Positions 15,732-41,700 of a stretch of DNA of 64,000 bases are shown piece after piece. A program made the translations under genes and the position numbers. Under the pieces are notes generated by a model. That model worked only from the letters and a program-made list of their open reading frames with translations, did not search any database and was not told the DNA's origin. Source of the stretch: Candidatus Latescibacterota bacterium (lineage in GTDB: Bacteria; Latescibacterota; UBA2968; GCA-2709665); contig OZ252100.1 in assembly GCA_965248435.1 (NCBI GenBank), forward strand, positions 4,914,102-4,978,101, given 5' to 3'. Numbering within the stretch: the first letter of the stretch is position 1; each line of letters begins with the position of its first letter.

Positions 15732-15744
15732 AAAGTGTATCGCT

Positions 15745-18815: not shown

Positions 18816-18919
18816 CTTCAGCGATCGAAACACGGGGTTTCTGGCCTTATCATCTGGCGCCATTTGGAAAACTGGGGCCTTCCCGGTCTGGAGACTGGTT
18901 GCCCTCTCCACACAACCCC

Positions 18920-19117
18920 ATGCCTCCGGCGGCCAACTTTTCTTGCTCGCCCAAGAAAAGTTGGACTAAAGAAAGGCGCCCCTCAGGCGCCGGGGAGGCT
19001 GACTTTTCCGCGAACCGTCCCAGTAGCCCTAGAGATGTTTGTGTCCTTGGATCTCTTGTGGTGTCCACAAACGGGAGTGCTTGACGGATAAGCGCGGAAA
19101 AGTCCCACCCCACCCCC
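18920..19117. repeat. R1 copy (modules B + C1)
   Basis: ATGCCTCCGGCGGCC. Hairpin aacttttcttg/caagaaaagtt. Module C1 ends in 'aagcgcggaaaagtcccaccccacccc'. Confidence 0.7.
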
Positions 19118-19229
19118 AAACCGGTGGTCAGCCTTGCCGTTCTTGGTCTGGAATCACCCAAGCGAGAAGGCCGGCTAACATCTTGCGAACGTGGAATCGG
19201 GTCCTTATTTTAGAACCAGATAAAGAACC

Positions 19230-20588
19230 TTGAACCTGGACCAGGAGACAGTTATGTCCGAACGAATCCGTTCGGCCGCGAAAGAGGCACGCAGAGCGTC
19301 ACTTACGCTAGGCGTCTCGTCGGAGGCCCAACGGAACGCTGCCCTCGAGGCGATCACCGTGGCCCTGGAGTCGAATCAGGAGGTGATCCTGGAGGCGAAC
19401 CGGCGCGACCAGGAGGCCGCGGCAGAGCTCGTCGCAAAGGGCGAACTCGCACCGGCCCTGGCCAAACGCCTGAAGATGGACGCGACCAAGCTGCTTTGCG
19501 AAGTCTGTCCGGGTGTCCGGAGCGTGAAGGCCCAGTCCGATCCGATCGGCAAGACGCTGATGGCGACGGAGCTGGACAAGGGCCTGAAGCTCTATCGGGT
19601 CTCCGTGCCGATCGGTGTGATCGGCGTCGTATTCGAATCCCGTCCTGATGCGCTCGTGCAGATCGCTTCGCTCTGCCTGAAATCGGGAAATGCCGTGCTG
19701 CTCAAGGGTGGAAGCGAGGCGAAGGAGACGAACCGCGAACTGTCAAAAGTGATCTTGGAGGCGACCCATGGTCTGGACGGCATCCCCGAGGGGTGGATGT
19801 TTCAGCTCGAAGACCGGGAAGAGGTGCGCGTGATCCTGGATCTTCACGACATGATCGACCTGATTATCCCGCGCGGAGGGAACGAGCTCGTTCAGTCGAT
19901 TATGCAGAATACGAAGATTCCGGTTATGGGCCACGCGGACGGAATCTGTCACGTCTACGTGGACAAGGACGCGGATCTGAGCGATGCGATCGCGATCGCG
20001 ATAGACGCGAAGACCCAGTACCCTGCGGTATGTAACGCGGCGGAGACCCTCCTGGTACATCGCGAGATCGCCCCGGCGTTTCTGCCGGAAGTGGTCAAAC
20101 GATATCAGGAGAAGGAGGTGGAGGTCCGCGCAGACGAAGCGACGCGAGACCTGGTCGGGAACGGCGTGATTGCCGCTACAGACGCGGATTGGGATACGGA
20201 GTACCTGGATCTGGTCATCTCGATCAAGATCGTGGACGACCTGGAAGCGGCCATCGATCACATCAACACCCACAGCAGCCACCATACCGACGCGATCGTG
20301 ACGAAAGATCGGTCCGCCGCAAAGCAGTTTCTTCAAAAGGTTGATTCTGCATCGGTCGTGCACAACGCATCCACACGCTTTGCAGATGGATTCCGGTTTG
20401 GACTCGGCGCCGAAGTGGGGATCAGCACGAACCGAATTCACAGCAGGGGTCCAGTCGGCCTCGAAGGCCTTGTGATCTACAAGTACATCGTGGAGGGTGA
20501 GGGCCAGACGGCAGGAGATTACATCGGTGAGAACGCGGCCAGCTTCCGCCATCAACCTTTGTCAGAAGGCTGGGTCCCTCCAGAATGA
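19230..20588 (+). CDS. proA: glutamate-5-semialdehyde dehydrogenase (gamma-glutamyl phosphate reductase)
   Basis: Hallmark ProA segments 'LIIPRGGNELV', 'HADGICHVYVD' and 'CNAAETLLVH'. The alternative start at 19254 (MSERIR) is equally plausible. Confidence 0.8.
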   Translation: MNLDQETVMSERIRSAAKEARRASLTLGVSSEAQRNAALEAITVALESNQEVILEANRRDQEAAAELVAKGELAPALAKRLKMDATKLLCEVCPGVRSVKAQSDPIGKTLMATELDKGLKLYRVSVPIGVIGVVFESRPDALVQIASLCLKSGNAVLLKGGSEAKETNRELSKVILEATHGLDGIPEGWMFQLEDREEVRVILDLHDMIDLIIPRGGNELVQSIMQNTKIPVMGHADGICHVYVDKDADLSDAIAIAIDAKTQYPAVCNAAETLLVHREIAPAFLPEVVKRYQEKEVEVRADEATRDLVGNGVIAATDADWDTEYLDLVISIKIVDDLEAAIDHINTHSSHHTDAIVTKDRSAAKQFLQKVDSASVVHNASTRFADGFRFGLGAEVGISTNRIHSRGPVGLEGLVIYKYIVEGEGQTAGDYIGENAASFRHQPLSEGWVPPE

Positions 20589-20702: not shown

Positions 20703-22247
20703 GTGGCATCACACCCTTTGCTCTTCTACAATAACGACGGCAGTCATATGCTCTACCTCTCGCCTCCAGTTTCACTGGACGAGTTCGTGTATGAGACGGT
20801 CGGGTATCTTTTGGGCACTCAGGTGGACGCGGTAGCCTGCCACATGTTCGGGTTCGGCGACGCCGTTCCACTTTTTCCGACGGAAGTACCTGGAGCCCAG
20901 GGTATCGAGCGATCTGAGGTCGAATGGGTGAGTGAGTGGCGCCAGGAGGAAATCATCCGCCTCCTGTTCGATCAGGGGGTCGACCCGTGGAAGGCCTCGC
21001 TGGAGGCCGCGCACAACGCCGGTATGGAGTTCTGGGCGGCCCTGAGGTTCAACGAGCTGCACGAAGGGCGCTTCCAGTGGAAGAGCGAGTTCCGCGTGAA
21101 CCATCCGGAATACGAGCTGGGCGGCCAATGTGCCGCCGACGGGCACGATCCGGAAGATCAATGCGTCGGGCTCAATTTTTCGATCCCTGAAGTACGCGCC
21201 CATCGCCTTGCGCTGATCGAGGAGGTCTGCTCGCGCTATGACGTGGACGGGTTCGAATGGGACTTCAACCGGGAGCCGGGACACCACTTTCCGGACTTGA
21301 AGGCGGGCGCGCCGATCCTGACGGCCTACGTGCGCGAGGCCAGGAAGGTGCTGGATGCCGTTGGCGACAAGCGGGGACGTCCCGTGGGGTTCGGCGTTCG
21401 AGTACCGGGCACGATCGAGGCGTGTCACCGAATTTCGGTCGAGATCGAAAACTGGATCAGCGAAGGCCTTGTGGACTATATCTGTCCGTCTCCCTACGCC
21501 GACACGTCCACAGACCTGCCGTTCGACGAGTTCGTGGCCCTGGCCGACGGGAAGGATTGCCGGATCTACGGCTGCCCGACCGAGATGTGCGGCCCGGGAC
21601 TCCACTGGCCCCCGCCGATCGAGACGCTGCGCGCGGGTGCGTGGAACGCCTGGCGCCAGGGTGTGGACGGGGTCTACATCTTCAACTATAACCATCCGAT
21701 CGTGAGCGACATGGATATGTCGGGTCTCTTTCGCGAACTCGGCAGCCCGGCAACGCTGGAATTCAGGGACAAAACCTACAGCGTGGCCGGAAGGAGAGGG
21801 CGGCCGGATGTCTTCAAAGAGAAGGTGCATCAGCTCCCACTGGCACTGGAGGAGCGGCCGACCGGTCCGGGCCAGACAGTGCGCTTTCTCGTGGGCGACG
21901 ATCTGGAAACCGCGGCCGAGCGGGGTGTGCTGGACGCGGTGACGCTGGAGCTGATCGTCATCGGCAAGACGTATGAGGATGTGGTGGAGTTCAAGCTGAA
22001 TGGAAGGCCGCTGCCTGAAGGCCCCCAGTTCAGGATGTATGAAAAGTACAAGATGGGTCTCGGCTCCAACGCCTTCCAGGGCCGATACGCGCTGAGGTAT
22101 GACCTGAGATCGGGGGACTGGATCAAGCAGGGGTGGAACGAGGTCGAAGTGGCGTTGAGAAAGAGGACGCGTCGGGTGAGGCAGCCGTTCGAGGTCTACG
22201 AAATGAACCTGGAGGTCAAGTATCGGGTATTGCCGATGCGGGCTTAG
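20703..22247 (+). CDS. TIM-barrel glycoside-hydrolase-like protein, paralog 1
   Basis: 514 aa. About 85% identical to the protein at 23777..25339. 'HPEYELGG' and 'FEWDFNREPGHHF' suggest a glycosyl-hydrolase-like (beta/alpha)8 fold. Confidence 0.5.
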   Translation: MASHPLLFYNNDGSHMLYLSPPVSLDEFVYETVGYLLGTQVDAVACHMFGFGDAVPLFPTEVPGAQGIERSEVEWVSEWRQEEIIRLLFDQGVDPWKASLEAAHNAGMEFWAALRFNELHEGRFQWKSEFRVNHPEYELGGQCAADGHDPEDQCVGLNFSIPEVRAHRLALIEEVCSRYDVDGFEWDFNREPGHHFPDLKAGAPILTAYVREARKVLDAVGDKRGRPVGFGVRVPGTIEACHRISVEIENWISEGLVDYICPSPYADTSTDLPFDEFVALADGKDCRIYGCPTEMCGPGLHWPPPIETLRAGAWNAWRQGVDGVYIFNYNHPIVSDMDMSGLFRELGSPATLEFRDKTYSVAGRRGRPDVFKEKVHQLPLALEERPTGPGQTVRFLVGDDLETAAERGVLDAVTLELIVIGKTYEDVVEFKLNGRPLPEGPQFRMYEKYKMGLGSNAFQGRYALRYDLRSGDWIKQGWNEVEVALRKRTRRVRQPFEVYEMNLEVKYRVLPMRA

Positions 22248-23776: not shown

Positions 23777-25339
23777 GTGGCATCACATCCCAGACTCTTC
23801 TACAACAACGACGGCAGTCACCTGATCTACCTCCCGCCTCCAGTTTCGCTCGACGCGTTCGTATATGAGACGGTAGGTTATCTGTTCGGCACCCAGGTGG
23901 ATGCGGTGGTCTGCCACATGTTCGGGTTCGGCGACGCCATTCCGCTTTTCCCGACCGAGGTGCCGGAGGCGAAGGGTATCGAGCTGGACCAGGTGGAATG
24001 GGTGAGTGAGTGGCGGCAGCAGGAGATTATGCGCCTTCTGTTCGATCAGGGGATCGACCCGTGGAAGGCCTCCCTGGAGGCCGCGCACGAGGCGGGCATG
24101 GAGTTCTGGGCGGGCCTGAGGTTCAACGACCTGCACGGAGGGCGGTTTCAGTGGAAGAGTGAATTCCGCGTGAACCACCCCGAATACGAACTGGGTAACC
24201 AGTGTCCGGCCGGGTCGCACCAGAGTGATCCAGAACGACCGTGTCACGGGCTCAACTTCGCTGTCCCTGAAGTGCGGGTCCACCGCCTGGCGCAGGTGGA
24301 GGAGGTCTGCACCCGTTATGATGTGGACGGGTTCGAGTGGGACCTGAATCGGCACCCGGGACACCACTTTCCGGACATGGAGGCGGGTGCGCCGATGCTC
24401 ACCGCCTACATACGTGAAGCGAAGGAGATGCTGAACGGCGTCGGAGATCGGCGGGGACGCCCCGTAAAGTTCAGCGTGCGCGTGCCGGGTACTGTTGAGG
24501 CCTGTCGCTGGATCGCGGTCGAAATCGAGACGTGGATTCGGGAAGGCCTTGTGGATTACGTATCTCCATCTGCCTACCACGACACGTCGACCGATCTGCC
24601 GTTCGACCATTTCGTTGCTCTGGCTGACGGAAAGGACGTCAGGATCTACGCGTCGCCTGGCGAGATGGTCGGGCCGGGACTCCACTGGCCCCCGCCGATC
24701 GAGACACTGCGCGCGGGCGCGTTCAACGCCTGGCAGCAGGGCGTGGATGGGGTCTACATCTTCAACTACAACCATCCGATCGTGAGCGACATGGATATGT
24801 CGGGTCTCTTTCGCGAACTCGGCAGCCCGGCAACACTCGAGTGGAGGGATAAACGGTATACCGTGGCTGGAGGGCATTCCGAGCTGAGGGGCGATTCCTA
24901 CGGTTTCAAATCGTGGAAACATCAACTTCCCGCGGCCCTGGAGGAACAGCCCACCGGTCCGGGCCACACCGTGCGCTTCCTCGTAGGCGACGATCTGCGG
25001 ACCGCGGCCGAGCGAGGCGTACTGGACGCGGTGACTCTGGAGCTGATCGTCATCGGCCAAACGTATGAAGATGTGGTGGAGTTCAAGCTGAATGGAAAGC
25101 CGCTGCCCGAAGGCCCCCAGTTCAGAATGTATCAAAAGTACAAGATGGGTCCCGGCGCGAACGCCTTCCAGGGCCGATACGCGCTGAGGTATGACCTGAG
25201 ATCGGGAGACTGGATCCGGCAGGGGTGGAACGAGGTCGAACTGGCGTTGAGAAAAAGGACGCGGCGGGTGAGGCAGCCGTTCGAGGTCTATGAGCTGAAC
25301 CTGGAGATCAAGTATCGCGTTCTGCCGATGAGACCTTAA
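23777..25339 (+). CDS. TIM-barrel glycoside-hydrolase-like protein, paralog 2
   Basis: 520 aa, collinear with paralog 1. Followed by the same heptamer repeat. Confidence 0.5.
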   Translation: MASHPRLFYNNDGSHLIYLPPPVSLDAFVYETVGYLFGTQVDAVVCHMFGFGDAIPLFPTEVPEAKGIELDQVEWVSEWRQQEIMRLLFDQGIDPWKASLEAAHEAGMEFWAGLRFNDLHGGRFQWKSEFRVNHPEYELGNQCPAGSHQSDPERPCHGLNFAVPEVRVHRLAQVEEVCTRYDVDGFEWDLNRHPGHHFPDMEAGAPMLTAYIREAKEMLNGVGDRRGRPVKFSVRVPGTVEACRWIAVEIETWIREGLVDYVSPSAYHDTSTDLPFDHFVALADGKDVRIYASPGEMVGPGLHWPPPIETLRAGAFNAWQQGVDGVYIFNYNHPIVSDMDMSGLFRELGSPATLEWRDKRYTVAGGHSELRGDSYGFKSWKHQLPAALEEQPTGPGHTVRFLVGDDLRTAAERGVLDAVTLELIVIGQTYEDVVEFKLNGKPLPEGPQFRMYQKYKMGPGANAFQGRYALRYDLRSGDWIRQGWNEVELALRKRTRRVRQPFEVYELNLEIKYRVLPMRP

Positions 25340-31039: not shown

Positions 31040-31620
31040 CTCGTTTAGTTGAGTCCAGCCAGCATTGGCCGGGCTTCCTGCTCGTGGTAGTGTAGCCGTT
31101 CGAGCTCGACGGGTGGGATATCCCCGATGGGCCCCAGAGTCGTCTGTTGTTGAACCAGTCTACCCACTCGAGTGTCGCATATTCAACCTGATCGAGGTTC
31201 CGCCAGGGCCCTCGTCGACGAAGTCCACAATCACTTCGGTCGGCGGTCGAGCTCCGCCTGTGCGAAATAGGCCGACGCCTTGCGAAGGATCTCGTTCGCC
31301 CGCCGCAACTCTCGGTTCTCGCGCTGCAGTTCTTTGAGTTGCGCCCGTTCGCTGCTTGTCACGCCGCCTCGACGTCCCGTGTTCACCTCGGTCCGACGTA
31401 CCCACTTCCGGAGCGTCTCAGCCGCGCAGCCAATTTTGCCCGCGATCGAATAGATGGCCTCCCACTGGGAGGCGTGTTCGTCAGTGTGCTCGAACACCAT
31501 CCGAACCGCCCGTTCTCGAACCTCTGGAGAATACCTCTTCACGTTTGTCATGACTCTATCCTCTCAAGAAATAGAGTCTCCGTCAAGTCCGGGGCGATTC
31601 ACCGCGCGCACGGTTGTGTT
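31040..31620 (-). mobile_element. internally deleted IS3-family element (orfA plus the last ~55 codons of orfB)
   Basis: orfA at 31231..31551 is intact. Immediately downstream, a different frame encodes 'EYATLEWVDWFNNRRLWGPIGDIPPVELERLHYHEQEARPMLAGLN*', the conserved OrfB C-terminus. The DDE core is missing. Confidence 0.6.
31231..31551 (-). CDS. IS3-family transposase OrfA
   Basis: 106 aa, '[22 protein letters not shown]...'. HTH plus leucine zipper. Confidence 0.65.
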
Positions 31621-31633
31621 AAATGCCCGTACT

Positions 31634-32520
31634 CTATTTTGACTCACCAAGATGCATCAACGGCAGAGGCATGGGGCTGTCACTGTTGATGAAATACACC
31701 TTGGCTGCTGGATCTTTGGAGATGGCTTTAAGCGCTTCCAGCGCCTGGAGTTTGACGTAGTTAGGGTTCTTGCCGATGGCCGCGTTGATTTTCTCGATTT
31801 CGTAGGCCTGGACATCTGCCAGTACGCGGCGCTGGGCGGCCTGTTCTTCAGCTGCACCGCGTTCCGCCTTTGCTGCTGCTATTTTCTGTTGTTGCTCTGT
31901 GCGGAAACGCTCCAGTTCTGCCTTCTGCTTCTCAACTTCCTGTTCGCGCTCCTTTTTTGACTCAATCGCCTTTGTGATAAAGGGGGGTAGGGCAATATCG
32001 CGAAGGAGCACAGCCCCCACATCTATTCCCTCCGGACCCAGATAATCGCGCAGTCCTTCCAGCAGTGCAGTCTGCAAGGTGACCTGGGCTTGCTCAAGAA
32101 AGAAGTCCTCGGCGCGTTTGACCGCTTTGCCCTGTTCACGTATCAGGGAACGCAGCTTCGGGATGATATGCACTCTGACGACGTCTTCCGCGGTGCCGGT
32201 CTCCTTCAGGATGCGCGGGGCATCTTTGCGCATGAGACGATACTGCACGCTGACATCAATCTTGGTCTGTAACTGGTCCTGGCTGGGGACGCTTGCCCGC
32301 TCCAAATGGGTCTTCTGGCGTACGTCATACAGATGCCAGGCATAGAGCGGATTGACGGGAATATGCAACCCTGCCTCATAAGGCTTCGGCTTCACACTCC
32401 CGAACAGTGTCGCGACCGCTACATGCCCGCTGGAATGCTTTGGTAAAATTTGCTGCCAAAGAATAAGACAATGATCACTATCACGATTGTAACAATGAGA
32501 GACTTCGGGATCTGATCCAT
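31634..32520 (-). pseudogene. SPFH/band-7 (prohibitin/HflKC-like) membrane protein with a frameshift
   Basis: The ORF 31634..32395 lacks an N-terminus. Upstream, another frame encodes 'MMDQIPKSLIVTIVIVIIVLFFGSKFYQSIPAG' (TM anchor). Shifting one nucleotide near 32437 gives 'HVAVATLFGSVKPKPYEAGLHIP', a contiguous SPFH N-terminus. Confidence 0.55.
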
Positions 32521-32782
32521 CATTGTTTCCTCCTGAAAGGGTTAACGTGAATACCGACTCGAACCTTACCCAAAATACAAACTATCATATCAGGGTAGAA
32601 CCTGCAATGTAGGCAAACGCTGCCCGACCATCCACAAGTTCGATGACCTCTTCCAGGCAAGGCATCCGAAAGTGTTGGTTGCTGTAGTGGGACCGTGGAG
32701 AACTACGGGTAGAATTATAAAATCACGCCCACACAGCTTGCTGGGCTATAGGCCGCCGGCGCCTGAAACGGTCTCAGAACCG

Positions 32783-33007
32783 CTAGTCGCAACCGCATCC
32801 TAACTCTGGACGTGGATACATAGGTGGGGGCAGGTCACCCACCAGTTCCGAATTCTTGAGCGATTCAAATTGGCTGACTGGGCGAGCACCCACCTTTTCC
32901 CTGAAGGAAGCAACTTTTGGAGGCTCGTTCGACTCCGACAGAGCACCCATTGTCCCCGGGTCCATACAAAGATAATCAATACCACACAGAGACAAAACCT
33001 GTTCCAC
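32783..33007 (-). CDS. small hypothetical protein (74 aa, C-terminal CGCD)
   Basis: An ORF in a low-GC spacer of the island. No recognisable family. May be spurious. Confidence 0.15.
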   Translation of the reverse strand: MEQVLSLCGIDYLCMDPGTMGALSESNEPPKVASFREKVGARPVSQFESLKNSELVGDLPPPMYPRPELGCGCD

Positions 33008-33108
33008 ACCCTCCGGGCAAGTGATCCCCTCGTTTGGGAACGACGACGGGCGCTCAACATGTCAAATACACGCTGTGCCCTCTGTGGTTCTGCAGAATAT
33101 GTTGTGTC

Positions 33109-33771
33109 TTACTCCTCGAAGGGAAAGTAGTCGAGGACGTCGTACTCCCACACATTGGTGGGAAAGATTACGACCAGTTCGGCCAAGTCCTCGCCCAAGT
33201 TCTTGAATGAGTGGGGGACCATAGGAGGAATATTGACGATATAGGGGGCTTCCAATGTGAACACCGAATCGCCCAGCGCGTAAAGGATGGTCCCCTCCAA
33301 CAGGACGTGCGCTTCTTCCCCTACGTGCGTGTGCATCGGAGGTGCACCTCCGGGGGCCGTATAGGTGATGCCCACGGTCAGGTTCTGATAGCCGTGCCGC
33401 TGCCCTTCCATGACGTGCACATATTCGCCCGGCCCTGGGTTGATGACGACGAGTTCTTTCTTCTCAAGAGCAAACTCGCCCACCAATGTCATAGCCGGGG
33501 ACTTGAAGTCACCGGGGATCCTGCGGGTTTCGATAATGCCGTGGGGGTGATGTTGTGCATGCAACTGCTTTCTCGCTTCATCAATCGAGCTGATTAGTTC
33601 TCCGTGTGTGATCGTCTGTCCTAGCTTGGCGTCCTCGGGTGAATACGTAACAGTCGGTTCCGGTGGCAGCGTGGAGGATTTATCTTTCGCGTCGGACGGC
33701 TCTAAGTAAGCCAAGCCAACGATGCCTATGAGGATGAAGCTAACGACAATACGTGGTGTATACCTGTGCAT
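33109..33771 (-). CDS. secreted cupin-2 domain protein (cassette-like)
   Basis: Signal peptide 'MHRYTPRIVVSFILIGIVGLAYLEPSDA'. Cupin motifs 'HTHVGEEAHVLLEGT' and 'PPMVPHSFKN'. Confidence 0.55.
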   Translation of the reverse strand: MHRYTPRIVVSFILIGIVGLAYLEPSDAKDKSSTLPPEPTVTYSPEDAKLGQTITHGELISSIDEARKQLHAQHHPHGIIETRRIPGDFKSPAMTLVGEFALEKKELVVINPGPGEYVHVMEGQRHGYQNLTVGITYTAPGGAPPMHTHVGEEAHVLLEGTILYALGDSVFTLEAPYIVNIPPMVPHSFKNLGEDLAELVVIFPTNVWEYDVLDYFPFEE

Positions 33772-33821
33772 GGTACCCTCCCTTTAGGGTATGGTGAAAG
33801 CACGGTCCTGGACCGCAATGG

Positions 33822-33908
33822 CAGGTAACGTTCTCGGCACCCACGAACCCGCGCAGCGGGTTGGGCGGAAGCCCGAATGGGCTGAAGCCGTGGGTGCTCG
33901 TGTTAGCG
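33822..33908. other. attC-like recombination site E1 (imperfect palindrome TAAC...GTTA)
   Basis: gcaggTAACgttctcGGCACCCACGaacc...GTGGGTGCtcgtGTTAgcgg. Internal inverted repeat GGCACCCACG/CGTGGGTGC. Lies between the cupin and APH cassettes. Confidence 0.55.
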
Positions 33909-33940
33909 GATGTCGCCGACGGAGCTGGCCTGGGAGGCTA

Positions 33941-34846
33941 TTAGAGTTTCGGCATAGGCCATTCGGCGATTGGCCTTCCCGACCAGGTTGACCGACTGAA
34001 GAATCGTCCACCCGCACGGTTGATGGAGCCGAACCACGCCTGGATCGCAATTCCCCAGAAATGCTCAAAGGATCTATCCTTCAGATTCAGATCAGCACGG
34101 TCGTAATGCGACAGGACCTCATCTACGAACACCTCGCCGTACACCCAGAAACCATAGAAGTCCTTGGCCGGGTCAGTGATTTCGATGTCGCCCCAGTCTA
34201 TGATCCCGGTCAGCTTTCCTGAAGAAGGATCGTGGTAGATGTGCTTGTACCATAGATCATTGTGAGCCAGCACTGGTACGAATGCGTGATCAATGCTCTC
34301 ACTTCTTTCGATCCAGGAACCGAAGACATCCCGAACCTCTGGCTCAAGTTCGTCGGCCCGATCTGCGAAGACCTTCTTGGCCTCCGACCGGTAAAACAGG
34401 GACCTGTCGCCATCCACCACACCAACACTCCGAGCCTCCGAGACTGGATAACTGTGAAGTTCGTTGAGGAAGACGCCAAGCCTGCTTGCCGCTTCTGCCC
34501 TCCTGAATCTTGGTAGCCTGGAGAATCGCCAAGGTGAGAGCCGCGTTCCTTGAATTGCCTTATATCCAGCGAAATCCGACGCGCTGGGAATAAAGGTGTA
34601 ATCCGGAACTGGGATGCTATTAATCTCACGCCTGATGGCGCTGAGCACCGTCCGCTCCCGCGGAAGGCTCAGCCCTGTGTCCGCTACATCATTCAGAAAA
34701 CGAAAGGCAATCCCGTTGTCTAGCAGGATCATTACATGATCAGGGTATTTGTGGGTCTGAGCTCTCCGGTATTTTGACCACCTGAGTTTGGGGAACGAGT
34801 CCTTGATCCTCTGCAGATAGTAGTTTGTATCGTAGGGAGTCGTCAC
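33941..34846 (-). CDS. aminoglycoside phosphotransferase (APH) family kinase, cassette
   Basis: Brenner motif 'LAHNDLWYKHI' and 'IDWGDIEITDP'. Start set at the in-frame GTG at 34846. The listed ORF start at 34915 lies inside element E2. Confidence 0.6.
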   Translation of the reverse strand: MTTPYDTNYYLQRIKDSFPKLRWSKYRRAQTHKYPDHVMILLDNGIAFRFLNDVADTGLSLPRERTVLSAIRREINSIPVPDYTFIPSASDFAGYKAIQGTRLSPWRFSRLPRFRRAEAASRLGVFLNELHSYPVSEARSVGVVDGDRSLFYRSEAKKVFADRADELEPEVRDVFGSWIERSESIDHAFVPVLAHNDLWYKHIYHDPSSGKLTGIIDWGDIEITDPAKDFYGFWVYGEVFVDEVLSHYDRADLNLKDRSFEHFWGIAIQAWFGSINRAGGRFFSRSTWSGRPIAEWPMPKL

Positions 34847-34892
34847 GAGATCTCCAGGATCAAAGTGGACCCTAACACAAAGGCGGCGATTT

Positions 34893-34980
34893 CCGCTAAC
34901 GTTCTCGGCACCCACGAACCCGCCGCAGGGGGTTGGGCGAAGGCCGGATGGCCTGAGCCGTGCACGGTCGTGTTAGAGGC
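34893..34980. other. attC-like recombination site E2
   Basis: ccgcTAACgttctcGGCACCCACGaacc...CGTGcacggtcgtGTTAgagg. Same architecture as E1 and E3. Confidence 0.5.
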
Positions 34981-35024
34981 CGTGCGGCCCGGGGCAGGAA
35001 GGGGTTCTCAAGACCTGATCAAGA

Positions 35025-36482
35025 TTAAACCGACTCCGGACCAATCTCTATGGGCAAGCTAATCGTTACTGTCGTACCTTTTCCTACCTCGCTCTCCATC
35101 TTGATCCTCCCCTTGTGATCCTGGATAATCCTGTAGTCCGTAGACAATCCTAAACCCATTTTCACCCGAAGATCGGTGGCCTGAAAATCAACATCGAAGA
35201 TGCGTTCTAACTGCTCCGGTGGAATTCCCACGCCCGTGTCGCTGATCCGGACACAGACCTTGTCGTCCTCCTCAAAGGTGCTGACTCTTATTTCCCCAGT
35301 TTCCTCGATAGCCTGGAGCGCGTTCTTGAGCAGGTGCATGAAGACCTGGTTCAGTTGTCCGGGAGAACAGTAGATCGGCGGGATGTTCCCGTATTTCTTG
35401 ACCACGGTGATGTTTTCGCCTATCCGGTTTTGTAGCAGCGTCAGGGCGCTGTCGATCCCCGCGTGAAGGTCTACCACCTGGAACTCGGCTTCGTCCAGTC
35501 GTGCGAAATTTCGCAGACTGCCCACAATGCTGCTCAACCGTTCGGCACCGCTTGCCATCACCCGGTTGGCATCGGCTATTGCCTTGAACACCGATTGAAT
35601 GGTCCGATTATCTTTATACTCTCCGGGAAAGGTCATCTCCAGCGTTTGTTTCAGTTTACCTATAGCCCGTACCTGAGTATCGTGCATACTCGTAATAGCG
35701 CCAAGAGGCGTATTCATCTCGTGAGCCACACCGGCTATCAGACTACCCAGAGAGGCCATTTTCTCCTGCATGATAAGCTGACTCTGTGTCTCTTTGAGCT
35801 GATGCAGGGCATCTTCCAGGGCTCGGTTCTGTTCTTCCAGATACTGGAAATCGAGGGTTCGGAGATACGCCAGCGACAGCGCGTCGGTCCATTCCTCTAT
35901 TTTGATCAAGTGTTCTGGATCGGTTCCCCGGTGGCGAATCCCGATCCAACCGTACTCAAACGGCACGTTGGTAATAACCCATCCTTCACTCCCAAAAAAC
36001 GGCAGTTGTCGGTCGAAGCCCATCAGCTCGTGAAAAGGCTGCATTTCCGCTTTGTCCTCCTCCGAACTCCGCGCAATAGACCAGACCTTGCCCTCGCGCC
36101 ACTGACCCAGATCCTCCTCCCAATCAGCCGTAATGGGGACTTCCAATGCCGAAACGGTGGTTGTTTCGTCGATCTCCTTGAGTTCGGGAGAGGTCCACGA
36201 GATGCCATATTGCCGGGGATTTTCCAGGGCGGCGTACCACAGAATGCGGCCTTTGTCCTCGTCGACGAAGAAAAAGCCACACCCTGGTGCCTCTATATCC
36301 AGCCGCGAAAGCTCCTTGAACATCACCAGGATCACCTGGAGAAGGTCCTCCCTGGAACGCATGGACAGCACTTCGACCCGTATGCGTTCGATTGTTTTCT
36401 CCTGGGCTCGTTGTTGCCTAAGTTCGGCTAGTTCAATCCGGAGTTGCTCTTTGGACATCTCCATGTCTCTCATGCTAAACAA
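35025..36482 (-). CDS. cytoplasmic sensor histidine kinase (GAF-like N-terminus, HisKA, HATPase_c), cassette
   Basis: H-box 'AGVAHEMNTPL'. N, G1 and G2 boxes present ('LLKNAL', 'DTGVGI', 'GLGLS'). No TM segments. Confidence 0.75.
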   Translation of the reverse strand: MFSMRDMEMSKEQLRIELAELRQQRAQEKTIERIRVEVLSMRSREDLLQVILVMFKELSRLDIEAPGCGFFFVDEDKGRILWYAALENPRQYGISWTSPELKEIDETTTVSALEVPITADWEEDLGQWREGKVWSIARSSEEDKAEMQPFHELMGFDRQLPFFGSEGWVITNVPFEYGWIGIRHRGTDPEHLIKIEEWTDALSLAYLRTLDFQYLEEQNRALEDALHQLKETQSQLIMQEKMASLGSLIAGVAHEMNTPLGAITSMHDTQVRAIGKLKQTLEMTFPGEYKDNRTIQSVFKAIADANRVMASGAERLSSIVGSLRNFARLDEAEFQVVDLHAGIDSALTLLQNRIGENITVVKKYGNIPPIYCSPGQLNQVFMHLLKNALQAIEETGEIRVSTFEEDDKVCVRISDTGVGIPPEQLERIFDVDFQATDLRVKMGLGLSTDYRIIQDHKGRIKMESEVGKGTTVTISLPIEIGPESV

Positions 36483-36502
36483 CCTTGTTTTGGGCCGGAT
36501 GG

Positions 36503-36597
36503 CCTATAACGTTCCCGGCACCCACGAACCTGGCGAAGCCAGGTTGGGCGGAAGCCCGAATGGGCTGGAGCCGTGGGTGCTCGTGTTAACTGCAGTT
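36503..36597. other. attC-like recombination site E3
   Basis: ccTATAACgttcccGGCACCCACGaacc...GTGGGTGCtcgtGTTAACtgcagttgcgc. Confidence 0.55.
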
Positions 36598-36612
36598 GCG
36601 CAGACCGCTTTG

Positions 36613-37575
36613 TCAGATCTTCGCGATAATGGAATCTAAGTAATCGTCGAATCGACAAAACAGGACTTCCTGACCTGGGTCTTTTATGCCGTATTCAGTC
36701 CAAGGAGGATAAAATCCTGGCTTCGGAATCGCCCAATCCAGAATAGAATCTATCTCCCAGAATGAGTGATACAGGTAATGTGGAGCAGCGACCTTGTGGT
36801 ATTTCTCTCGGAAACTGCCTGCTATTTCGGGGCCGAACATCGTGGCAAGATTAATCTGACAATGAGCTACGTCCACGTTTGCGGGTCCCAGACAAGCGCC
36901 AACCCAATCGACGATCCCGGTCAGCTTTCCAGATACCCATAGGATGTTAACTGGATGGTAGTCGCGGTGGAGAAACACCTCGTCATAGGGAGGCGATTCT
37001 TCGAGTCTAATGTTGATTGCCTTCTCCCAAAGTTCAGATCGTTTCGACCAAGGTGGTACACAAAGTGTCTCGACTTCGGTATAGCTCTGGTAGTGCCATC
37101 TTACACCATAAACCGCGATACTATGAATAGTCGCCAAGGTCTCCGCTAGTTGGTCGAGCCAATGGTCCAAATTGGCCGGCTTTATGTTCACAGTTCCATC
37201 CAAACAGCTCATTAGAAGAGCGGGGTATCCGAAAACCGAAGTGTCTGCACTGTAATCGAGCAGATGAGGCGTTGGAAGGTCGGCAGAACTCAGCAATCGA
37301 AGCGCAGCCGCCTCCCGCACGATTGGATCTGGCTCCCTACCAAGCCGTTCCTCATCCACATAGAGACGTAATACATACCTTCTAGATTCACCTGCGACAT
37401 CTGCTTCCAGCAAGAAAACGGGTGAAGCGGGTCCGCAGATCAGTCTTTTGCTACTGGTCAATTTCGCGCTAGCGCCAATTGCTGAACTGATCCAGTCAGT
37501 AGCCGCACTATTGAGAATGAGTTCCGAACTCACAGCGACTCCAGAATCAAATAAGAAGGGGTTAGGGCTGCGCAA
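36613..37575 (-). CDS. APH-family phosphotransferase, cassette
   Basis: 'FLHRDYHPVNILW' and 'GIVDW' catalytic and Mg-binding motifs of the APH/choline-kinase fold. Confidence 0.6.
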   Translation of the reverse strand: MRSPNPFLFDSGVAVSSELILNSAATDWISSAIGASAKLTSSKRLICGPASPVFLLEADVAGESRRYVLRLYVDEERLGREPDPIVREAAALRLLSSADLPTPHLLDYSADTSVFGYPALLMSCLDGTVNIKPANLDHWLDQLAETLATIHSIAVYGVRWHYQSYTEVETLCVPPWSKRSELWEKAINIRLEESPPYDEVFLHRDYHPVNILWVSGKLTGIVDWVGACLGPANVDVAHCQINLATMFGPEIAGSFREKYHKVAAPHYLYHSFWEIDSILDWAIPKPGFYPPWTEYGIKDPGQEVLFCRFDDYLDSIIAKI

Positions 37576-37674
37576 TTGCAGTTAACGGTCTAGGCACTTG
37601 CGAACCCCGGAGGGGTTTGCCGAGGGCCGTCAGGCCCGAGCCGCAAGTGCCTTGTTAACTGCTGTTGCGCCCGG
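37566..37674. other. attC-like recombination site E4
   Basis: GGGCTGCGCAATTGCAGTTAACggtctaGGCACTTGCGaacc...CGCAAGTGCCttGTTAACTGCTGTTGCGCCCGGG. The extended terminal palindrome matches the ends of E3 and E5. Confidence 0.55.
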
Positions 37675-37677
37675 GTG

Positions 37678-38541
37678 TCAATAGAGCCTCTTCACCTCTT
37701 GGAGTCGAGTCAGCACATGTCTCTCGTAGGCCGTTTTCAGTCGCAATGAATCCCACGGTTTCCCCCGTCTCTTGATAGAGTCCACGACTACCGAGCCAAA
37801 ACCGAATGCCATGTAGTAGGGGAGATCTGCGGCGTCTACGCCGAAGAACCTGAGATCTCTGAGCCGAGAAAATAGCCGAGACGCAGGCCAAATAGGATTG
37901 TGGAGCAGGACTCCCACTAGAATCTCCTTTGTGCCGAAAAAGGCTTGCTCAAAATCAATAAATCTGTGGATGGCCCCGTTTTTCAGGAACAGGTTCTCTG
38001 GATTCCAGTCCAGCTTGATCAGCAGGTCTTCTGAAATCTCAACCCTGGCCACCGAGTCGCAGATGTCCTGAAAAATCGGACCGCAATCTCCGACATCCTT
38101 TGCCAGACGAGATAGGTTGTCAATCAAGGTCCCGAGATTTTCCTCTGCCCCAATCCCTTCGTAGTATTCGCCTTTGAGTTCGAGAGTTGGCTCTGGCCCC
38201 CTGAACAGACTTATGAGTTCATCGACGTAGTTATCGGTCAACTCGAGTAGCTCATCAGAGGGAAGTGGGCTGATGTCGCTCATCCGATCTCCCTCTGCTC
38301 GTTCGATAACGATGTAGTCATTGACACTCAGATCAATGAGTTTGGGGATTAGCTTTGACTCTTTGTAATGAGACAAGAATCCTACTTCACGCCTGAATTT
38401 GCCTGCTCTTTCCCCGTTTCCGCTGTAAGTCTTCTTCACAGACTTTCCATCGGAGAGGAACTCGATTTGGCTCTTCCTGCCTTGAGGCGATTTATGCACG
38501 GCAGATTCTCGCTTCTTTAGAGTCTTTCCCAATGGGCGCAA
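37678..38541 (-). CDS. protein-kinase-like phosphotransferase (APH/Kdo-kinase-like), cassette
   Basis: 'IKLDWNPENLFLKNGAIHRFIDFEQAFF' contains a D..N catalytic loop and a DFE Mg-binding motif of the PKL fold. Confidence 0.5.
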   Translation of the reverse strand: MRPLGKTLKKRESAVHKSPQGRKSQIEFLSDGKSVKKTYSGNGERAGKFRREVGFLSHYKESKLIPKLIDLSVNDYIVIERAEGDRMSDISPLPSDELLELTDNYVDELISLFRGPEPTLELKGEYYEGIGAEENLGTLIDNLSRLAKDVGDCGPIFQDICDSVARVEISEDLLIKLDWNPENLFLKNGAIHRFIDFEQAFFGTKEILVGVLLHNPIWPASRLFSRLRDLRFFGVDAADLPYYMAFGFGSVVVDSIKRRGKPWDSLRLKTAYERHVLTRLQEVKRLY

Positions 38542-38695
38542 TTGCAGTTAACGTTCTTCAGGTTTACGACGCCTGCTGTCCCGAAGGGCTGGCGCGGCAT
38601 TTGCGCTTCTCACCAAATGACGTGACAGAAGCAGGTGTGCCCCAAGGGCCAAGCGGAACGAAGTGGAGCGCAGCGTAAACCTGGTGTTAACAGAT
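38536..38695. other. attC-like recombination site E5 (long variant, ~160 bp)
   Basis: GGGCGCAATTGCAGTTAACgttcttcaGGTTTACG...CGTAAACCtggtGTTAACagatg. Inner inverted repeat GTTTACG/CGTAAAC. Confidence 0.5.
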
Positions 38696-38936
38696 GGCAC
38701 GCGCCGGGGTGGTTGTGGGGGCGGGCCAGGACGGCCCGCGTAGGGGTGCTTTTTCTGATTTTGACTCCAAGTTTTTAAATAAAGCGTGCTGTCATCAACA
38801 TCGTTCTCTTTATGTTTTATCTTCCAATTTAACGTGCCGATAAGCGGCGGCGATTAGCCGTCCGCTCCACTGGCTAGTTCGCCTCGACCTTCGTCCACCT
38901 GAAGAGCTGTCGACAGCTGACCCGTGTGCTCCGCCT

Positions 38937-39995
38937 TCACCACTGCACGCGGAGGCGCGTCCAACGGATGCCGCAGACGTCGTCCTCTACGCACCAATGA
39001 ACGGCAAGCACGATGTTGTCCTCAAGCAAAAGGCCCATCGGATAGCCGAACTGAATGAGCCCGATCTGCTCCTGACTGCTGACGTCCTCGGTAAGCTCAA
39101 GCCTTGACCGACCGTCGAACAGGGTGCCTTCGAACTCAAGCGACCAGCACGCGCCCGACACTCGGACCAGGCACATCTGTACGCTCTGGTCACCGAAGCG
39201 TCTGTTGTACAGCACGAGATACCGATCGTCCCCGAGCCAGATCGGGGTCATTGTCTGACCCTGGATACCGGTAGGGTACGGTCCTTCCCAACTGCGGCCG
39301 CCGTCGGTCGATACGCTAAACGCGTTCCTCAGGTCAGTGTCTCCCGCGAAGTCCTGGACCCACGCAATGGCCAGCATTTGTCCCGGTTCCGTCTCGATCA
39401 GCTTCTGCTCCAGATACCCGATGCCGGTGCCGGGGTCCTGGAAGACAGTATACATGCTCGGCCAGGTCGCCCCCTGGTCGGACGATTCGTGCAGCACCAC
39501 GCGCTCCCCGTAACGCCCGTCGTATAATGTCGCGGCCGGAGCGAGCCAGCGTCCGTCAGCGGTGACGACAATCGGGTTCGAGATCTCATAGGGCCCCGCA
39601 ATCTGAAAGGGAATAACTTCGGGAAAGGACCACGTATGGCCGCCGTCCGTCGAGCGGCACAGCACGGGTTCACAGACGCGACCCCGTCCGCCGTCCGCGA
39701 TGCTCAGCTTCTGGTCGCGCTGGCCGTACGCGAGGATCGTTCCGTCCGCGGTGCGGCTGAGGCGCAGATGGTTGGTCTTCACCGGGCTCTCGTCCCGCTT
39801 GAGGACGACGCCCAGGTACGACCAGATGAAGCCCCCATCGGCAGAACGGGCGCAGTGCGTGTCGCCTTGCGCGTGAGCTCCGCCGCCGCGACTGAACCCG
39901 CAGACGATGTCGCCGCTATCTAACCGTACTAAGGTGGGAAACGCTGAGTCGCCGCGGTCGATGTGGCCGGTACCGAGAATCTCGATAGTGGACAT
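38937..39995 (-). CDS. BNR/Asp-box repeat sialidase-like beta-propeller protein, first cassette
   Basis: Three S-x-D-x-G-x-T-W Asp-boxes (STDGGHTW, SSDQGATW, STDGGRSW). Confidence 0.65.
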   Translation of the reverse strand: MSTIEILGTGHIDRGDSAFPTLVRLDSGDIVCGFSRGGGAHAQGDTHCARSADGGFIWSYLGVVLKRDESPVKTNHLRLSRTADGTILAYGQRDQKLSIADGGRGRVCEPVLCRSTDGGHTWSFPEVIPFQIAGPYEISNPIVVTADGRWLAPAATLYDGRYGERVVLHESSDQGATWPSMYTVFQDPGTGIGYLEQKLIETEPGQMLAIAWVQDFAGDTDLRNAFSVSTDGGRSWEGPYPTGIQGQTMTPIWLGDDRYLVLYNRRFGDQSVQMCLVRVSGACWSLEFEGTLFDGRSRLELTEDVSSQEQIGLIQFGYPMGLLLEDNIVLAVHWCVEDDVCGIRWTRLRVQW

Positions 39996-40099
39996 GGAAT
40001 CCTCCAGGCATCTGCGAACTATTTCCTATACGGAAAAATCGCCGAAGAAAGCTATCAATGGTTTTCTTGGCGGCCAGGACGGCCGCCGGTTGTGGTTTT

Positions 40100-40250
40100 G
40101 AATTTGATGCGTGCTTTCTGTTAACTTCTGCATTCGCGCCCCATCGGCGCAAATACCACCCGATAGGGCAAATAATGCGCACTGCGCAGATCCTGCCAAT
40201 AATATAGATAATGCGCCTTATTTCGTGAATGCTATTTATAGGAGACACCA
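40100..40250. other. candidate attI-like region, with a GTTAAC core at 40120-40125
   Basis: GTTAACTTCTGCATTCGCGCC resembles the 3' ends of E3 and E4 (GTTAACTGC(A/T)GTTGCGC). Lies between the intI remnant stop and the first cassette. Confidence 0.35.
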
Positions 40251-40251
40251 A

Positions 40252-40536
40252 TTAACCGGAACCTGTCTCCCTCTCCATCGGGTCGTCCAGGGGATTCCTA
40301 ATCTGGGCGAGGTCCCTCCGGGTCATGTGAGTATGGATTCCCGTCGTTTTTGAACTTTTGTGGCTCAGGAGCTCCTGGATGTATCGGAGGTCCGTGCCCC
40401 TTTCAAGAAGATGGGTCGCAAATGAGTGTCTGAGGGTGTGTACGGACACCGGCTTCTCAATACCGGCCCGTTTGTAAGCTTGGTCGAAGATTTTCTGCAC
40501 GGATTGGATCCATAAAAAAATACCGAATGCCTAAGC
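40252..40536 (-). pseudogene. intI: integron-integrase-like (IntI) tyrosine recombinase, 5'-truncated remnant
   Basis: The frame opens right after a stop at ~40536. It encodes '...[51 protein letters not shown]...QIRNPLDDP'. Box II, the catalytic tyrosine region and the C-terminal 'R(S/N)PLD' motif resemble the IntI 'GVRSPLD' ending I recall rather than XerC/D endings. Confidence 0.5.
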
Positions 40537-40854
40537 TCCCAGAGCCCGTGACATTCGGCTTATTTGTTGCCGGTCGAACGCCACAGGCTGCACTCATAGG
40601 CACCTACAAATTCCACGACCGCTACGGACTCCGATTCGGGTTCCGAAGTCACTACACGATGCGACCGGGGCCTTGCTCCTGAACCCGGATGGACGCATGT
40701 GGACAACTCAGAACTTGCAGACGGCGGCAGATTTTGTAACTTTGGAGCGAAGCCGCGCACGGAGGAAGAAGAGATGACGAAGGGGAAGAGGGCGCGGATC
40801 GCGGTCAAAAATAGATAGAAAACGGAATAATCCCTTACTTAGAGGAGAACTGAC

Positions 40855-41700
40855 GTGGTCACTCGCTCAGACCCTCGACTCAGCCGCTTCGATCCGCTGC
40901 CTCAGATCCACTACTTCGATGATTTCGACGTGGGTCTGCAGGGATGGACAGCGCTGATCGGGAACTACGAGGAGACGCTGGATTCCGTGCTGCCCGGATA
41001 CCGGGACTTCGGACCTCCCATGCTCAGCAATGCCACGATGTGGGACACCGGATCGGCCGGTGCCTTCGACGGCACATATGCCATGAAGCTGGTTACGAGG
41101 CCGAAGTCGGGGTGCATGACGACCGCGGTAAAACGTGTGACCTGGCGCCATCAAGGCCCGATTCAGCTGGAGGCCTATGTGACGTTCAAACCGGAGGCGT
41201 CGGAATTGCGGCTTTCCGAGCTGGACGTGAGGTCGTTCGGCGTTTTGTTCGACCTGCACGACGCCACGCGGCGGGTGATGCCGCACCTGCGTTATCTGAA
41301 TGCGCTGGACGGACAGCCGGTCGCTCGCTGGCAGTATAAGAAGGAGCTGGAGACCGCCGAGGAGATCGGGACGTCGGGGAAGACCCGATCCCATCATCAC
41401 CTGGCGCCGGAGGGCTGGCTGGACGTGCCGGGCGAGCCCCAGCCCCTCTGTTACAACGAGATCGCGACGAAGCAGAACTGGCACTATATAAAGGTAGGGT
41501 TCGATCTGGCGTCGATGACCTACCTGAGTTTCCAGTGCAATGACCGGGAGTATGATGTCTCCGAGATCGCCCCGATGTCTATGCCTGCGTGGTCGAATCT
41601 CTGGTGTATGCTGAATGTAGTCTTCTTTTTGGAGACGGATCTGGACAAGAGGGCGTTTCTGTATGTGGATTCGGTGTTGGTTTCGGGGGAGACGGACTGA
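40855..41700 (+). CDS. hypothetical protein
   Basis: GTG after an AGGAGA ribosome-binding site. 281 aa. Translationally coupled (TGATG) to the following ORF. Confidence 0.4.
   Translation: MVTRSDPRLSRFDPLPQIHYFDDFDVGLQGWTALIGNYEETLDSVLPGYRDFGPPMLSNATMWDTGSAGAFDGTYAMKLVTRPKSGCMTTAVKRVTWRHQGPIQLEAYVTFKPEASELRLSELDVRSFGVLFDLHDATRRVMPHLRYLNALDGQPVARWQYKKELETAEEIGTSGKTRSHHHLAPEGWLDVPGEPQPLCYNEIATKQNWHYIKVGFDLASMTYLSFQCNDREYDVSEIAPMSMPAWSNLWCMLNVVFFLETDLDKRAFLYVDSVLVSGETD

Follow-up and report, generated by a model that had tools for sequence, protein, structure and literature searches.

In a 64,000-nucleotide stretch of Candidatus Latescibacterota bacterium contig OZ252100.1 (hereafter the window), six minus-strand open reading frames (ORFs) lie between 33.0 and 40.5 kb, with five palindromes between them and the stump of a tyrosine recombinase gene at their head. 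We consider it probable that this locus is the relic of a 'reverse' integron-type cassette platform, which belonged to a clade of IntI-related recombinases lacking I2, the extra domain peculiar to IntI, and which used hairpin sites of a bulge type. The arrangement is reverse in that the recombinase remnant is on the same strand as the cassettes, rather than in the classic divergent orientation. An earlier account made from the letters of the sequence (the sequence-only reading) had called the locus a degenerate chromosomal integron. That account is right in kind and wrong in two defining details, the recombinase lineage and the site geometry, and we do not count the locus among the canonical family.

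Cassettes and their recombination sites

Judged from the sequence, the five palindromes (E1 to E5; Table 1) are cassette recombination sites, and two observations are decisive: the flanks of the elements pair across cassettes, and two of the cassettes recur elsewhere. When the 16-nt right flank of each element is compared with the left flank of the next, 10, 11, 14, 11 and 10 of the 16 positions match, versus 4.1 +/- 1.8 for random pairs and 5-9 for an element's own two flanks. The outer flank of E5 has as its partner a lone GTTAAC at 40120-40125, next to the recombinase remnant. Cassette ends would complement each other in this way because recombination at G|TT joins the start of a cassette to the previous site, so that a cassette opens with ~20 nt that are reverse-complementary to the ~20 nt preceding its own hairpin.

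The recurrent cassettes have precise ends and changed contexts in L082 and L083, contigs of long-read metagenomes (ENA ERZ25766727). Positions 2247-3835 of contig L082, from another metagenome, match window 40138-38549 at 98%, a segment that holds the BNR gene and E5. The identity runs up to ...GAAGAACGTTA, after which the two sequences diverge; at the end of cassette 1 it reaches ...CTGAAGAACGTTA, and divergence follows directly, at the predicted GTTA crossover. Similarly, L083 1712-2535 matches window 33863-33040, the cupin cassette, at 97%. The cupin cassette takes sixth place in the window but second place in L083, whereas the arrays of the window and of L082 both open with the BNR cassette, followed by different sequence in each. 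In both cases the homology stops at the GTTA boxes and the neighbours differ. Another locus, L002, contains four copies of one small cassette, which have the upstream flank and the hairpin in common and differ in their downstream flanks; from this pattern the crossover falls at the downstream GTTA, just as it does in integrons.

The same comparisons account for the distal end of the array. No site follows the cupin gene, and the window holds no partner for the start flank of the cupin cassette. L083 runs on into a site at 2547-2634 that belongs to this cassette, its R'' flank CGCAACGGCAGGTAAC being the pairing partner of GTTACCTGCCATTGCG at the cassette start, and the divergence between the window and L083 at 33040 marks the loss of this site. 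By comparison with L083, then, the array is one of six cassettes but five sites.

Sites of the window's family are in arrays in every contig where they were found. The covariance model R1, described below, has nine matches in L001, a second complete genome, and nine in L083. The 18 metagenome contigs retrieved with a 21-base pattern all have arrays as well (34 R1 matches, up to 5 in 2.6 kb), and none of the 18 carries a recombinase. An alternative is that the elements are generic intergenic palindromes between co-oriented genes, such as repetitive extragenic palindromes (REPs), bacterial interspersed mosaic elements, miniature inverted-repeat transposable elements (MITEs) or terminators. They are indeed imperfect GC-rich palindromes at gene 3' ends, and some IS1111-family elements also target REP sequences (PMC11187229). 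However, motif search, R1 and a generic structural scanner found no site copies in the window outside 33.8-40.1 kb, and direct reading found no T-run after the stems. Because flanks pair across genes, gene-plus-hairpin units recur with exact junctions and arrays are present in every contig with such sites, we regard the REP/MITE and terminator explanations as excluded and assign them a negligible probability.

Two further observations concern these cassettes and their relatives. Insertion sequence (IS) elements of the IS110 family lie at the same position of three sites, at L082 3838 and at L083 2634 and 11367. The insertion point is exact, GTTA|GATACTC... (GTTA|GATACTCTC...; GTTA|GATACTCTCTTGGTGGTCA), and the elements have a 330-aa DEDD_Tnp_IS110 + Transposase_20 transposase on the opposite strand. 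In addition, the BNR gene (window 38886-40018) is found at 88% nucleotide identity in L084 (8099-9230), L085 and L086, within an operon-like run that has no hairpin sites. The homology there covers the gene only and excludes the cassette's 5' leader and hairpin-bearing 3' part; these genes may be a snapshot relevant to cassette creation.

With respect to anatomy, each element was delimited on the plus strand by its outer 7-mers, the first ending in AAC and the last starting with GTT. All five have the form YTAAC...GTTR and are imperfect palindromes of 81-147 nt, and the R''/R' boxes YTAAC/GTTR, present in 5/5 window elements, are invariant in alignments A1 and A3. The terminal 17-mer GCGCAATTGCAGTTAAC occurs five times in the window at <=3 mismatches, versus 0.05 expected. 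E5 reads TGTTAAC-A-[CCAGGTTTACG]...[CGTAAACCTG]-AAGAAC-GTTAACT and has a long branched tip.

RNAalifold gave no structure for a MAFFT alignment of ten elements because the variable tips were misaligned, and a five-sequence seed with a hand-derived structure was used instead. This seed, made up of three window elements and two from another genome, yielded the model R1; the structure, derived from the two genomes, combines the R box with a clamp of 2 bp, an L stem of 9 bp and a three-way junction. Run without filters over the entire window, R1 detects E1-E4 only, at 67-87 bits, and the next match is at 11 bits. Because R1 is family-specific, missing E5 and every site family in the 80 genome loci introduced below, a generic structural scanner with shuffled controls was written, and in the window it reports E1, E3, E4 and E5 only. 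These same four fold better than shuffled sequence (z = -2.7 to -6.9). The main stem of E2 no longer forms because its L'' (left) arm has diverged (CCGTGCACGG versus its partner CGTGGGTGC).

The structure is paired in 94.5% of its cells, versus 24-45% when the partners are slid, and nine pairs have changed on both sides. The L''/L' stem is paired over 9-11 bp with compensatory changes in six pairs, the exception being the degenerate E2. Since pairing is kept through changes on both sides, it is structure that is conserved, and not sequence. Rfam 15 has no match to the sites at gathering threshold. RF02912, a 'putative aminoglycoside riboswitch / attI site', gives a sub-threshold match at window 36462-36522 (-) (22.4 bits versus a gathering threshold of 56; E=0.41), which spans the E3 3' end and the start of the next cassette; it probably reflects a shared GTTA-type junction only and was disregarded.

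The geometry of the folded sites differs from that of canonical attC sites. On its bottom strand, a canonical attC has an R box of 7 bp, 5-6 unpaired spacer nucleotides in each arm, an extrahelical G in L'' and a T six bp further in, both on the '' (3') arm (PMC5027507). Control sites beside an insertion-bearing IntI in Pseudoxanthomonas (L027) have the canonical spacer and the G and T bulges on the 3' arm. In contrast, bottom strands of the window sites and of those in L002, L012 and L009 have a bulge of 3-4 nt (3 in L002) on the 5' (') arm, one bp after AAC, with 0-2 unpaired bases opposite it and an uninterrupted L stem; in E4 the bulge is 4 nt and nothing is unpaired opposite. The extrahelical G/T bases are absent from the '' arm: E4 and E5 have no bulge there, and E1 and E3 have at most a single bulged T, two bp away from the R box. 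The symmetric spacer of 5-6 nt is likewise absent, the top-strand spacers being 1-4 nt after YTAAC versus 5-7 nt before GTTR. According to a statement in PMC7790495 that cites MacDonald 2006, the I2 helix reads the extrahelical bases, and a joint absence of I2 and of these bases would therefore be coherent. The plus-strand fold is favoured in 5/5 window sites, and for E5 it is 8-10 kcal/mol more stable than the minus strand. The preference is inconsistent in L002, L012 and L009, and the strand-stability difference was dropped as general evidence of strand choice.

Much of what the sequence-only reading had said of the array holds. There are indeed five related imperfect palindromes between six co-oriented minus-strand genes, and flank pairing and recurrent cassettes bear out an integron-type array with a degenerate recombinase at its head. 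The R''-L''...L'-R' architecture of attC sites was recognised correctly as to the boxes and the paired L arms, but the bottom-strand folds lack the extrahelical G/T and the two-arm spacer. Extended termini shared by E3-E5 are present, but are in fact cassette ends that pair across genes. The reading also passed over the lack of a site behind the cupin gene and the orientation that the remnant shares with the cassettes. Pfam confirms the cupin, the two APH genes, the histidine kinase and BNR_2. The 'kinase-like' 287-aa ORF is not confirmed, so that two of the three proposed APH-fold kinases stand and the third is without any family match.

This ORF (37678-38541) has no Pfam, NCBIfam or PDB sequence match, and its motif LDWNPENL...IDFE, read by eye only, suggests a kinase fold. 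For the APH of cassette 5, the best NCBIfam matches are to APH(2'') and Mph models, far below their cut-offs. Its true start is further in, because the listed GTG start at 34915 falls inside E2.

Table 1. Recombinase remnant, platform element, cassettes and site elements of the locus, with window coordinates
Feature	Coordinates	Strand	Description	Flank pairing	R1 score and fold
Tyrosine recombinase remnant	40252..40500	-	82 aa, C-terminal, ends ...IRNPLDD...; PF00589 E=4e-17		
Platform element, attI-like	40126..40245	-	~120 nt, between remnant stop (40252) and crossover G (40125)		
Cassette 1	38552..40124	-	BNR_2 (sialidase-like) ORF 38937-39995 (Pfam BNR_2) + E5	10/16	
Cassette 2	37586..38551	-	ORF 37678-38541, 287 aa, no family match, + E4	11/16	
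Cassette 3	36510..37585	-	APH ORF 36613-37575 (PF01636 E=4.8e-31) + E3	14/16	
Cassette 4	34900..36509	-	Histidine kinase ORF 35025-36482 (HisKA + HATPase_c) + E2	11/16	
Cassette 5	33829..34899	-	APH ORF 33941-34915 (PF01636 E=1.4e-13) + E1	10/16	
Cassette 6	33040..33828	-	Cupin ORF 33109-33771 (Pfam), truncated, own site missing		
E1	33823-33908	-	86 nt		R1 87 bits; z = -2.7
E2	34894-34978	-	85 nt, degenerate; missed by stem-based scanner		R1 67.5 bits; z = -0.8
E3	36504-36591	-	88 nt		R1 86.4 bits; z about -3
E4	37580-37660	-	81 nt, best-formed hairpin		R1 81.6 bits; -41.4 kcal/mol, z = -6.9
E5	38546-38692	-	147 nt; found by generic scanner		Missed by R1; z = -3.1 (+ strand)

The recombinase remnant and the platform element

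The remnant lacks the N-terminal three quarters or more of a recombinase, and the sequence beyond 40500 (upstream of V/MQKIF) is unrelated. Its catalytic Tyr is replaced by His (IHTH versus IYTH in relatives) and it has LLSH versus LLGH, with the box II region kept. Given the truncation and the mutation, this recombinase cannot be active. Directly upstream of the truncation point, at 40505-40575 (-), there is a 7-bp inverted repeat, CCGAATG...CATTCGG, which encloses a loop of 22 nt and has TATTTTTTTAT after it; the whole resembles a terminator and marks the junction with unrelated sequence.

The remnant is closer to IntI than to XerC/D on the available scores: 88.8 bits for the integron-integrase model TIGR02249 versus 82.5 for XerD among NCBIfam models, and 65 bits for VchIntIA (2A3V), 52 for XerA and 46.5 for XerD among solved structures. 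A scan of one genome per species gave 80 related loci. The closest full-length relatives of the remnant (63-71% identity) are from Ignavibacteriota, Bacteroidota, Halonatronum and others, and true IntIs are 48-60% identical to it. True IntIs match TIGR02249 in one stretch at 372-482 bits, and those scored in this way share 56-59% identity with the remnant. The close relatives score 197-251 bits versus a cut-off of 265, match in two separate stretches and are without the IntI-specific insertion of 45-50 aa (alignment A4). These insertion-less proteins pass NF040815, a XerA-type model, at 220-244 bits versus its cut-off of 220. The distance from GKGxKDR to HxLRH is bimodal, being either 56-70 or 99-103 residues; it is 56-63 aa in the L001 remnant and the nearest full-length relatives and 99-103 aa in true IntIs.

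The I2-bearing region itself is deleted in the window remnant. The remnant in L001 has a longer ORF, which spans the insertion junction, and it is without the insertion too. When the C-terminal 76 residues are placed in a neighbour-joining tree, the remnants of the window and of L001 come out as sisters within a group of 25 insertion-less sequences that includes no IntI. These comparisons place the window remnant within an IntI-related clade that is without the IntI-defining additional domain.

A canonical sedentary chromosomal integron has to be weighed at this point. Under that explanation the remnant would derive from a true, I2-bearing IntI, and the palindromes would be ordinary attC sites of a taxon-specific kind. 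The best matches of the remnant, to TIGR02249 and VchIntIA, are those expected of an IntI, as is its ...PLD tail; the R''/R' boxes, the L stems, the single-ORF cassettes and the G|TT crossover are all integron-like, and a reverse orientation is known for I2-bearing IntIs of Spirochaetota (PMC9668308). Yet the L001 remnant keeps the I2 region and has no insertion in it, the nearest relatives all lack the insertion, and the site geometry is unlike both the canonical form and the L027 control. We therefore consider a canonical integron unlikely, and prefer a reverse platform of the insertion-less clade. With regard to the sequence-only reading, the truncated tyrosine recombinase with an RNPLD end and the GTTAAC junction site beside it were both correctly identified. 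The label 'IntI remnant' is justified in so far as the protein is closer to IntI than to XerC/D, but it misses the position of the remnant within an insertion-less clade.

We also note that all 120 best database homologues of the remnant are short (72-144 aa), for example in Paenibacillus, Thermoanaerobacteraceae and Nitrospirae metagenome-assembled genomes (MAGs), and that several are on contigs of 0.1-5.8 Mb. Either 3' stumps are commonly retained, or the ranking favours short targets.

The element between the remnant and the first cassette may be the counterpart of an attI site. Its ends, TAGCATTCACGAA... and ...CGCGAATGCAGAA, make a closing stem, there is no AAC box on the 5' side, and it terminates at the crossover G (40125) of GTTAAC. 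There are further copies at the head of arrays in L083 (872-984, 84% identical) and, as a variant, in L082 (2150-2262), and the three copies have three different upstream neighbours. A metagenome scan for a 25-mer of the platform returned nothing. We hold with moderate confidence that the platform is an attI analogue. Two candidates for intact recombinases in these contigs were rejected: the gene upstream in L083 encodes an SNase-domain protein, and the 309-aa integrase that lies at the far end of the L082 array has no more than 34% identity to the remnant and is not of its family.

Arrays of the insertion-less clade

In the core insertion-less group (30 loci), 43 sites lie downstream of the recombinase gene and 5 upstream (2.49 and 0.25 per 10 kb), versus 2 downstream and 19 upstream for the insertion-bearing IntIs (29 loci; 0.10 and 1.39 per 10 kb). 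The contrast between the groups is highly significant (Fisher exact p = 1.6e-10). The downstream sites of the insertion-less loci are mostly ~130 nt long, and in 39/43 of them, as read on the recombinase-sense strand, the 5' box is followed by a shorter spacer than the one that precedes the 3' box; the window sites have the same polarity relative to the remnant.

A complete example is L002, where an intact 316-aa insertion-less recombinase is accompanied by nine hairpin sites, all cassette ORFs are co-oriented and flanks pair across cassettes at 12-14/16. A search for recombinase-proximal junctions found none when only substitutions were allowed, and L002 and L024 only when indels were admitted. 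The first cassette in these two begins 27 nt (L002) or 25 nt (L024) after the recombinase stop codon. L012, from Gemmatimonadaceae, has eight sites. L014, which combines the insertion with a group-like C-terminus, has no array downstream and hence offers no comparison.

Another possibility is that a Xer-type or other recombinase acts on double-stranded sites, in the manner of pdif modules or integrative mobile elements exploiting Xer (IMEX), with the hairpins being incidental and the remnant unrelated to the array. The remnant's clade is in fact Xer-like in architecture, having no I2 and passing NF040815; moreover, the site family of the window has no intact partner adjacent to it, and L082 has its unrelated 309-aa integrase at the far end of the array. 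However, the sites are structured palindromes of 81-160 nt with compensatory changes rather than 28-bp dif-like cores, and direct reading shows no inverted repetition between the L' arm and the R' flank. In addition, polar arrays lie directly downstream of insertion-less recombinases in several phyla, as close as 25-27 nt after the stop codon, and remnants of the same clade are at or in arrays in two independent genomes. We judge a duplex-site mechanism to be quite improbable, and again favour a hairpin-based platform of the insertion-less clade.

Several points weigh against the reading that we favour. No intact recombinase adjoins any array of the window's exact site family, so that the partnership of enzyme and site is drawn from two remnants and from analogy with L002, L012, L024 and L009. 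Furthermore, the L001 remnant sits inside its array in a duplicated block, and not cleanly at the head. The clade assignment concerns a degenerate fragment of 82 aa and a simple neighbour-joining tree without support values, and the mean identity of the remnant to the insertion-less group (57.5%) exceeds that to the IntIs (52.9%) by about 5 points. The contrast in site counts was obtained with a stringent generic scanner that handles no bulges and may under-detect canonical attC sites beside true IntIs. Two sigma-70-like matches in the platform face the cassettes (40229-40201 and 40199-40172), but such matches are no more numerous than in shuffled sequence. It is also only a proposal that the clade catalyses cassette recombination, and that it does so in a single-strand mode.

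Beyond the window, there may be a widespread and so far undescribed class of I2-less, integron-like cassette systems that have a one-sided bulge beside the R box, of which the window would be a decayed member. We advance this tentatively. Candidate examples were seen in Ignavibacteriota, Bacteroidota, Gemmatimonadota, a Halonatronum, probable Chloroflexota and possibly Archaea.

Some of these loci have features of their own. In L001 the recombinase remnant is within a ~0.9-kb duplicated block, with sites on both sides (5724-7536 and 9399-10264), and an IS630-like element (10367-11694; 22-bp terminal inverted repeats, TA duplication) splits the next site after the remnant in its left box (..GTACGTA|AC). 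L016 has four identical 67-nt hairpin sites at an exact spacing of 2406 bp (12628-19912), 3' of a truncated (188-aa) insertion-less recombinase; these are either a tandem duplication of one cassette or an assembly artefact.

Proposed function, setting and relation to known systems

The organization suggests the following scheme. Reading along the minus strand, a recombinase gene, now an 82-codon 3' stump, would have been followed by a platform ending in ...AGAA-G|TTAAC and then by six promoterless single-gene cassettes, each with a terminal hairpin site built as YTAAC-(1-4 nt)-stem...stem'-(5-7 nt)-GTTR. Site-specific recombination at G|TT in the downstream box would bring cassettes in and take them out, and circular cassettes would insert at the platform site. 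The sites would be recognised as folded structures, with stem sequences free to vary as long as pairing is kept. It is proposed that they fold as single strands, and that the insertion-less recombinase, bound to the R and L duplexes, cuts the bottom strand at AA|C. Transcription may read from the platform into the array.

In its present state the system is no longer autonomous and is dead in cis, with its recombinase truncated and mutated, E2 degenerate and the last site deleted. Only with a paralogue acting in trans from another part of the genome could cassettes still move.

The locus is set among genes of ordinary chromosomal metabolism, namely those for an NrfA-type cytochrome c552, gamma-glutamyltranspeptidase, LarA and an S15 peptidase. 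Among the named homologues of the gamma-glutamyltranspeptidase, the best are from Anaerolineae/Chloroflexi MAGs (70-72% identity), which by themselves would tentatively suggest a host in Chloroflexota. Adjoining the head of the array there is a divergent gene for a DUF6772 protein (40855-41700, +; E=7e-122), and members of its 90% identity cluster are on contigs of 4.1-4.3 Mb. At the distal end, the ~640 bp between an SPFH/Band 7 gene and the truncated cupin cassette (32400-33040) contain no recognisable gene or homologue. After the SPFH/Band 7 gene, ~1.5 kb past the array end, comes a fragment of an IS3-type transposase OrfA (31231-31551, -; HTH_Tnp_1), which has 76% nucleotide identity to L075. 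Two paralogues of ~515 aa with weak GHL10 matches, 1.5 kb apart at 20703-22247 and 23777-25339 (+), are unrelated to the array.

By itself the window is of modest significance, being a dead array with two uncharacterised APH-fold phosphotransferases far below resistance-model cut-offs. It is rather a pointer to a possible I2-less class of integron-like systems, and as such it merits follow-up. If the class is real, the clade could be the missing intermediate between Xer and IntI, or else an independent solution to hairpin recombination, and an origin of integrons from Xer-like enzymes could be tested with living proteins such as that of L002. Strand choice and site recognition would need broader rules, which admit a bulge beside the R box as well as extrahelical bases. 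There would also be consequences for surveys. I2 is regarded in the field as a requirement for the capture of cassettes and for recombination of single strands. Integron integrases are defined and filtered by their I2 domain (PMC4889954, PMC9176274, PMC9668308), and pipelines discard I2-less recombinases before analysis (PMC9176274, PMC8352920), so that systems of this kind would be reported as orphan clusters of attC sites without an integrase (CALINs; Cury et al. 2016, PMC4889954). A class of cassette platforms would escape such surveys. In one study, 54 intI were counted versus 2080 CALINs (PMC8435808), and the class could explain part of the excess of CALINs in genomes and metagenomes.

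Earlier work has established integron-type cassette arrays and CALINs, as well as the decay of intI genes and the reverse orientation (PMC4889954, PMC3607928, PMC9668308). In the literature searched, there was no account of arrays partnered with insertion-less recombinases nor of the bulge-type geometry, an absence that is no proof of novelty. By the usual definition, a CALIN has >=2 attC sites and no intI within 4 kb; the window has no functional intI and five sites, which standard tools may or may not score as attC. The locus resembles sedentary chromosomal integrons and CALINs in its promoterless single-ORF cassettes, structured palindromic sites, RYYYAAC/GTTRRRY-type boxes and G|TT crossover, and also in the relatedness of sites within an array, the mixed accessory functions, the frequent decay of the integrase and the presence of IS elements in or near arrays. 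It differs from them in that its recombinase lineage is without the IntI-specific domain, its sites have neither extrahelical bases nor a symmetric 5-6 nt spacer, terminal complementarity extends ~16-20 nt beyond the boxes instead of 7 bp, and the platform is itself a hairpin.

With Xer/dif systems, pdif modules and IMEX, the locus shares a simple tyrosine recombinase without I2 and modules bounded by recombination sites. Sites of the dif type have a duplex core of ~28 bp, with two inverted 11-bp arms and a spacer of 6-8 bp. The sites of the window's type, in contrast, are covarying hairpins of 81-160 nt and form polar arrays beside a dedicated recombinase gene. A different parallel is provided by the IS1111-attC group, which targets one end of attC sites, as indicated where PMC11187229 cites Tetu & Holmes 2008 and Post & Hall 2009. 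The IS110-family elements of L082 and L083 likewise have a fixed position at one end of cassette sites, but they were compared by Pfam domains and insertion position, and they are in relatives of the array and not in the window.

The nearest match among protein classifications is the 'integron-like' tyrosine recombinases (Smyshlyaev et al. 2021, PMC8138268), which, together with NF040815 ('site-specific tyrosine recombinase/integron integrase'), include insertion-less members. However, these schemes classify proteins only and describe no cassette arrays for the insertion-less members, and the insertion is said there to be one that 'is essential for integron function' (PMC8138268). Finally, the locus is close in layout to the reverse integrons of Treponema denticola and other Spirochaetota (PMC3607928, PMC4909258, PMC9668308), in which the recombinase is also co-oriented with the cassettes and transcribed toward a site directly downstream. 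A protein search with Treponema L018 reached neither the T. denticola integrase nor any protein named integron integrase. The published reverse integrases were selected for having the additional domain (PMC8352920), which the window's clade is without, and it is by this description that the two are set apart.

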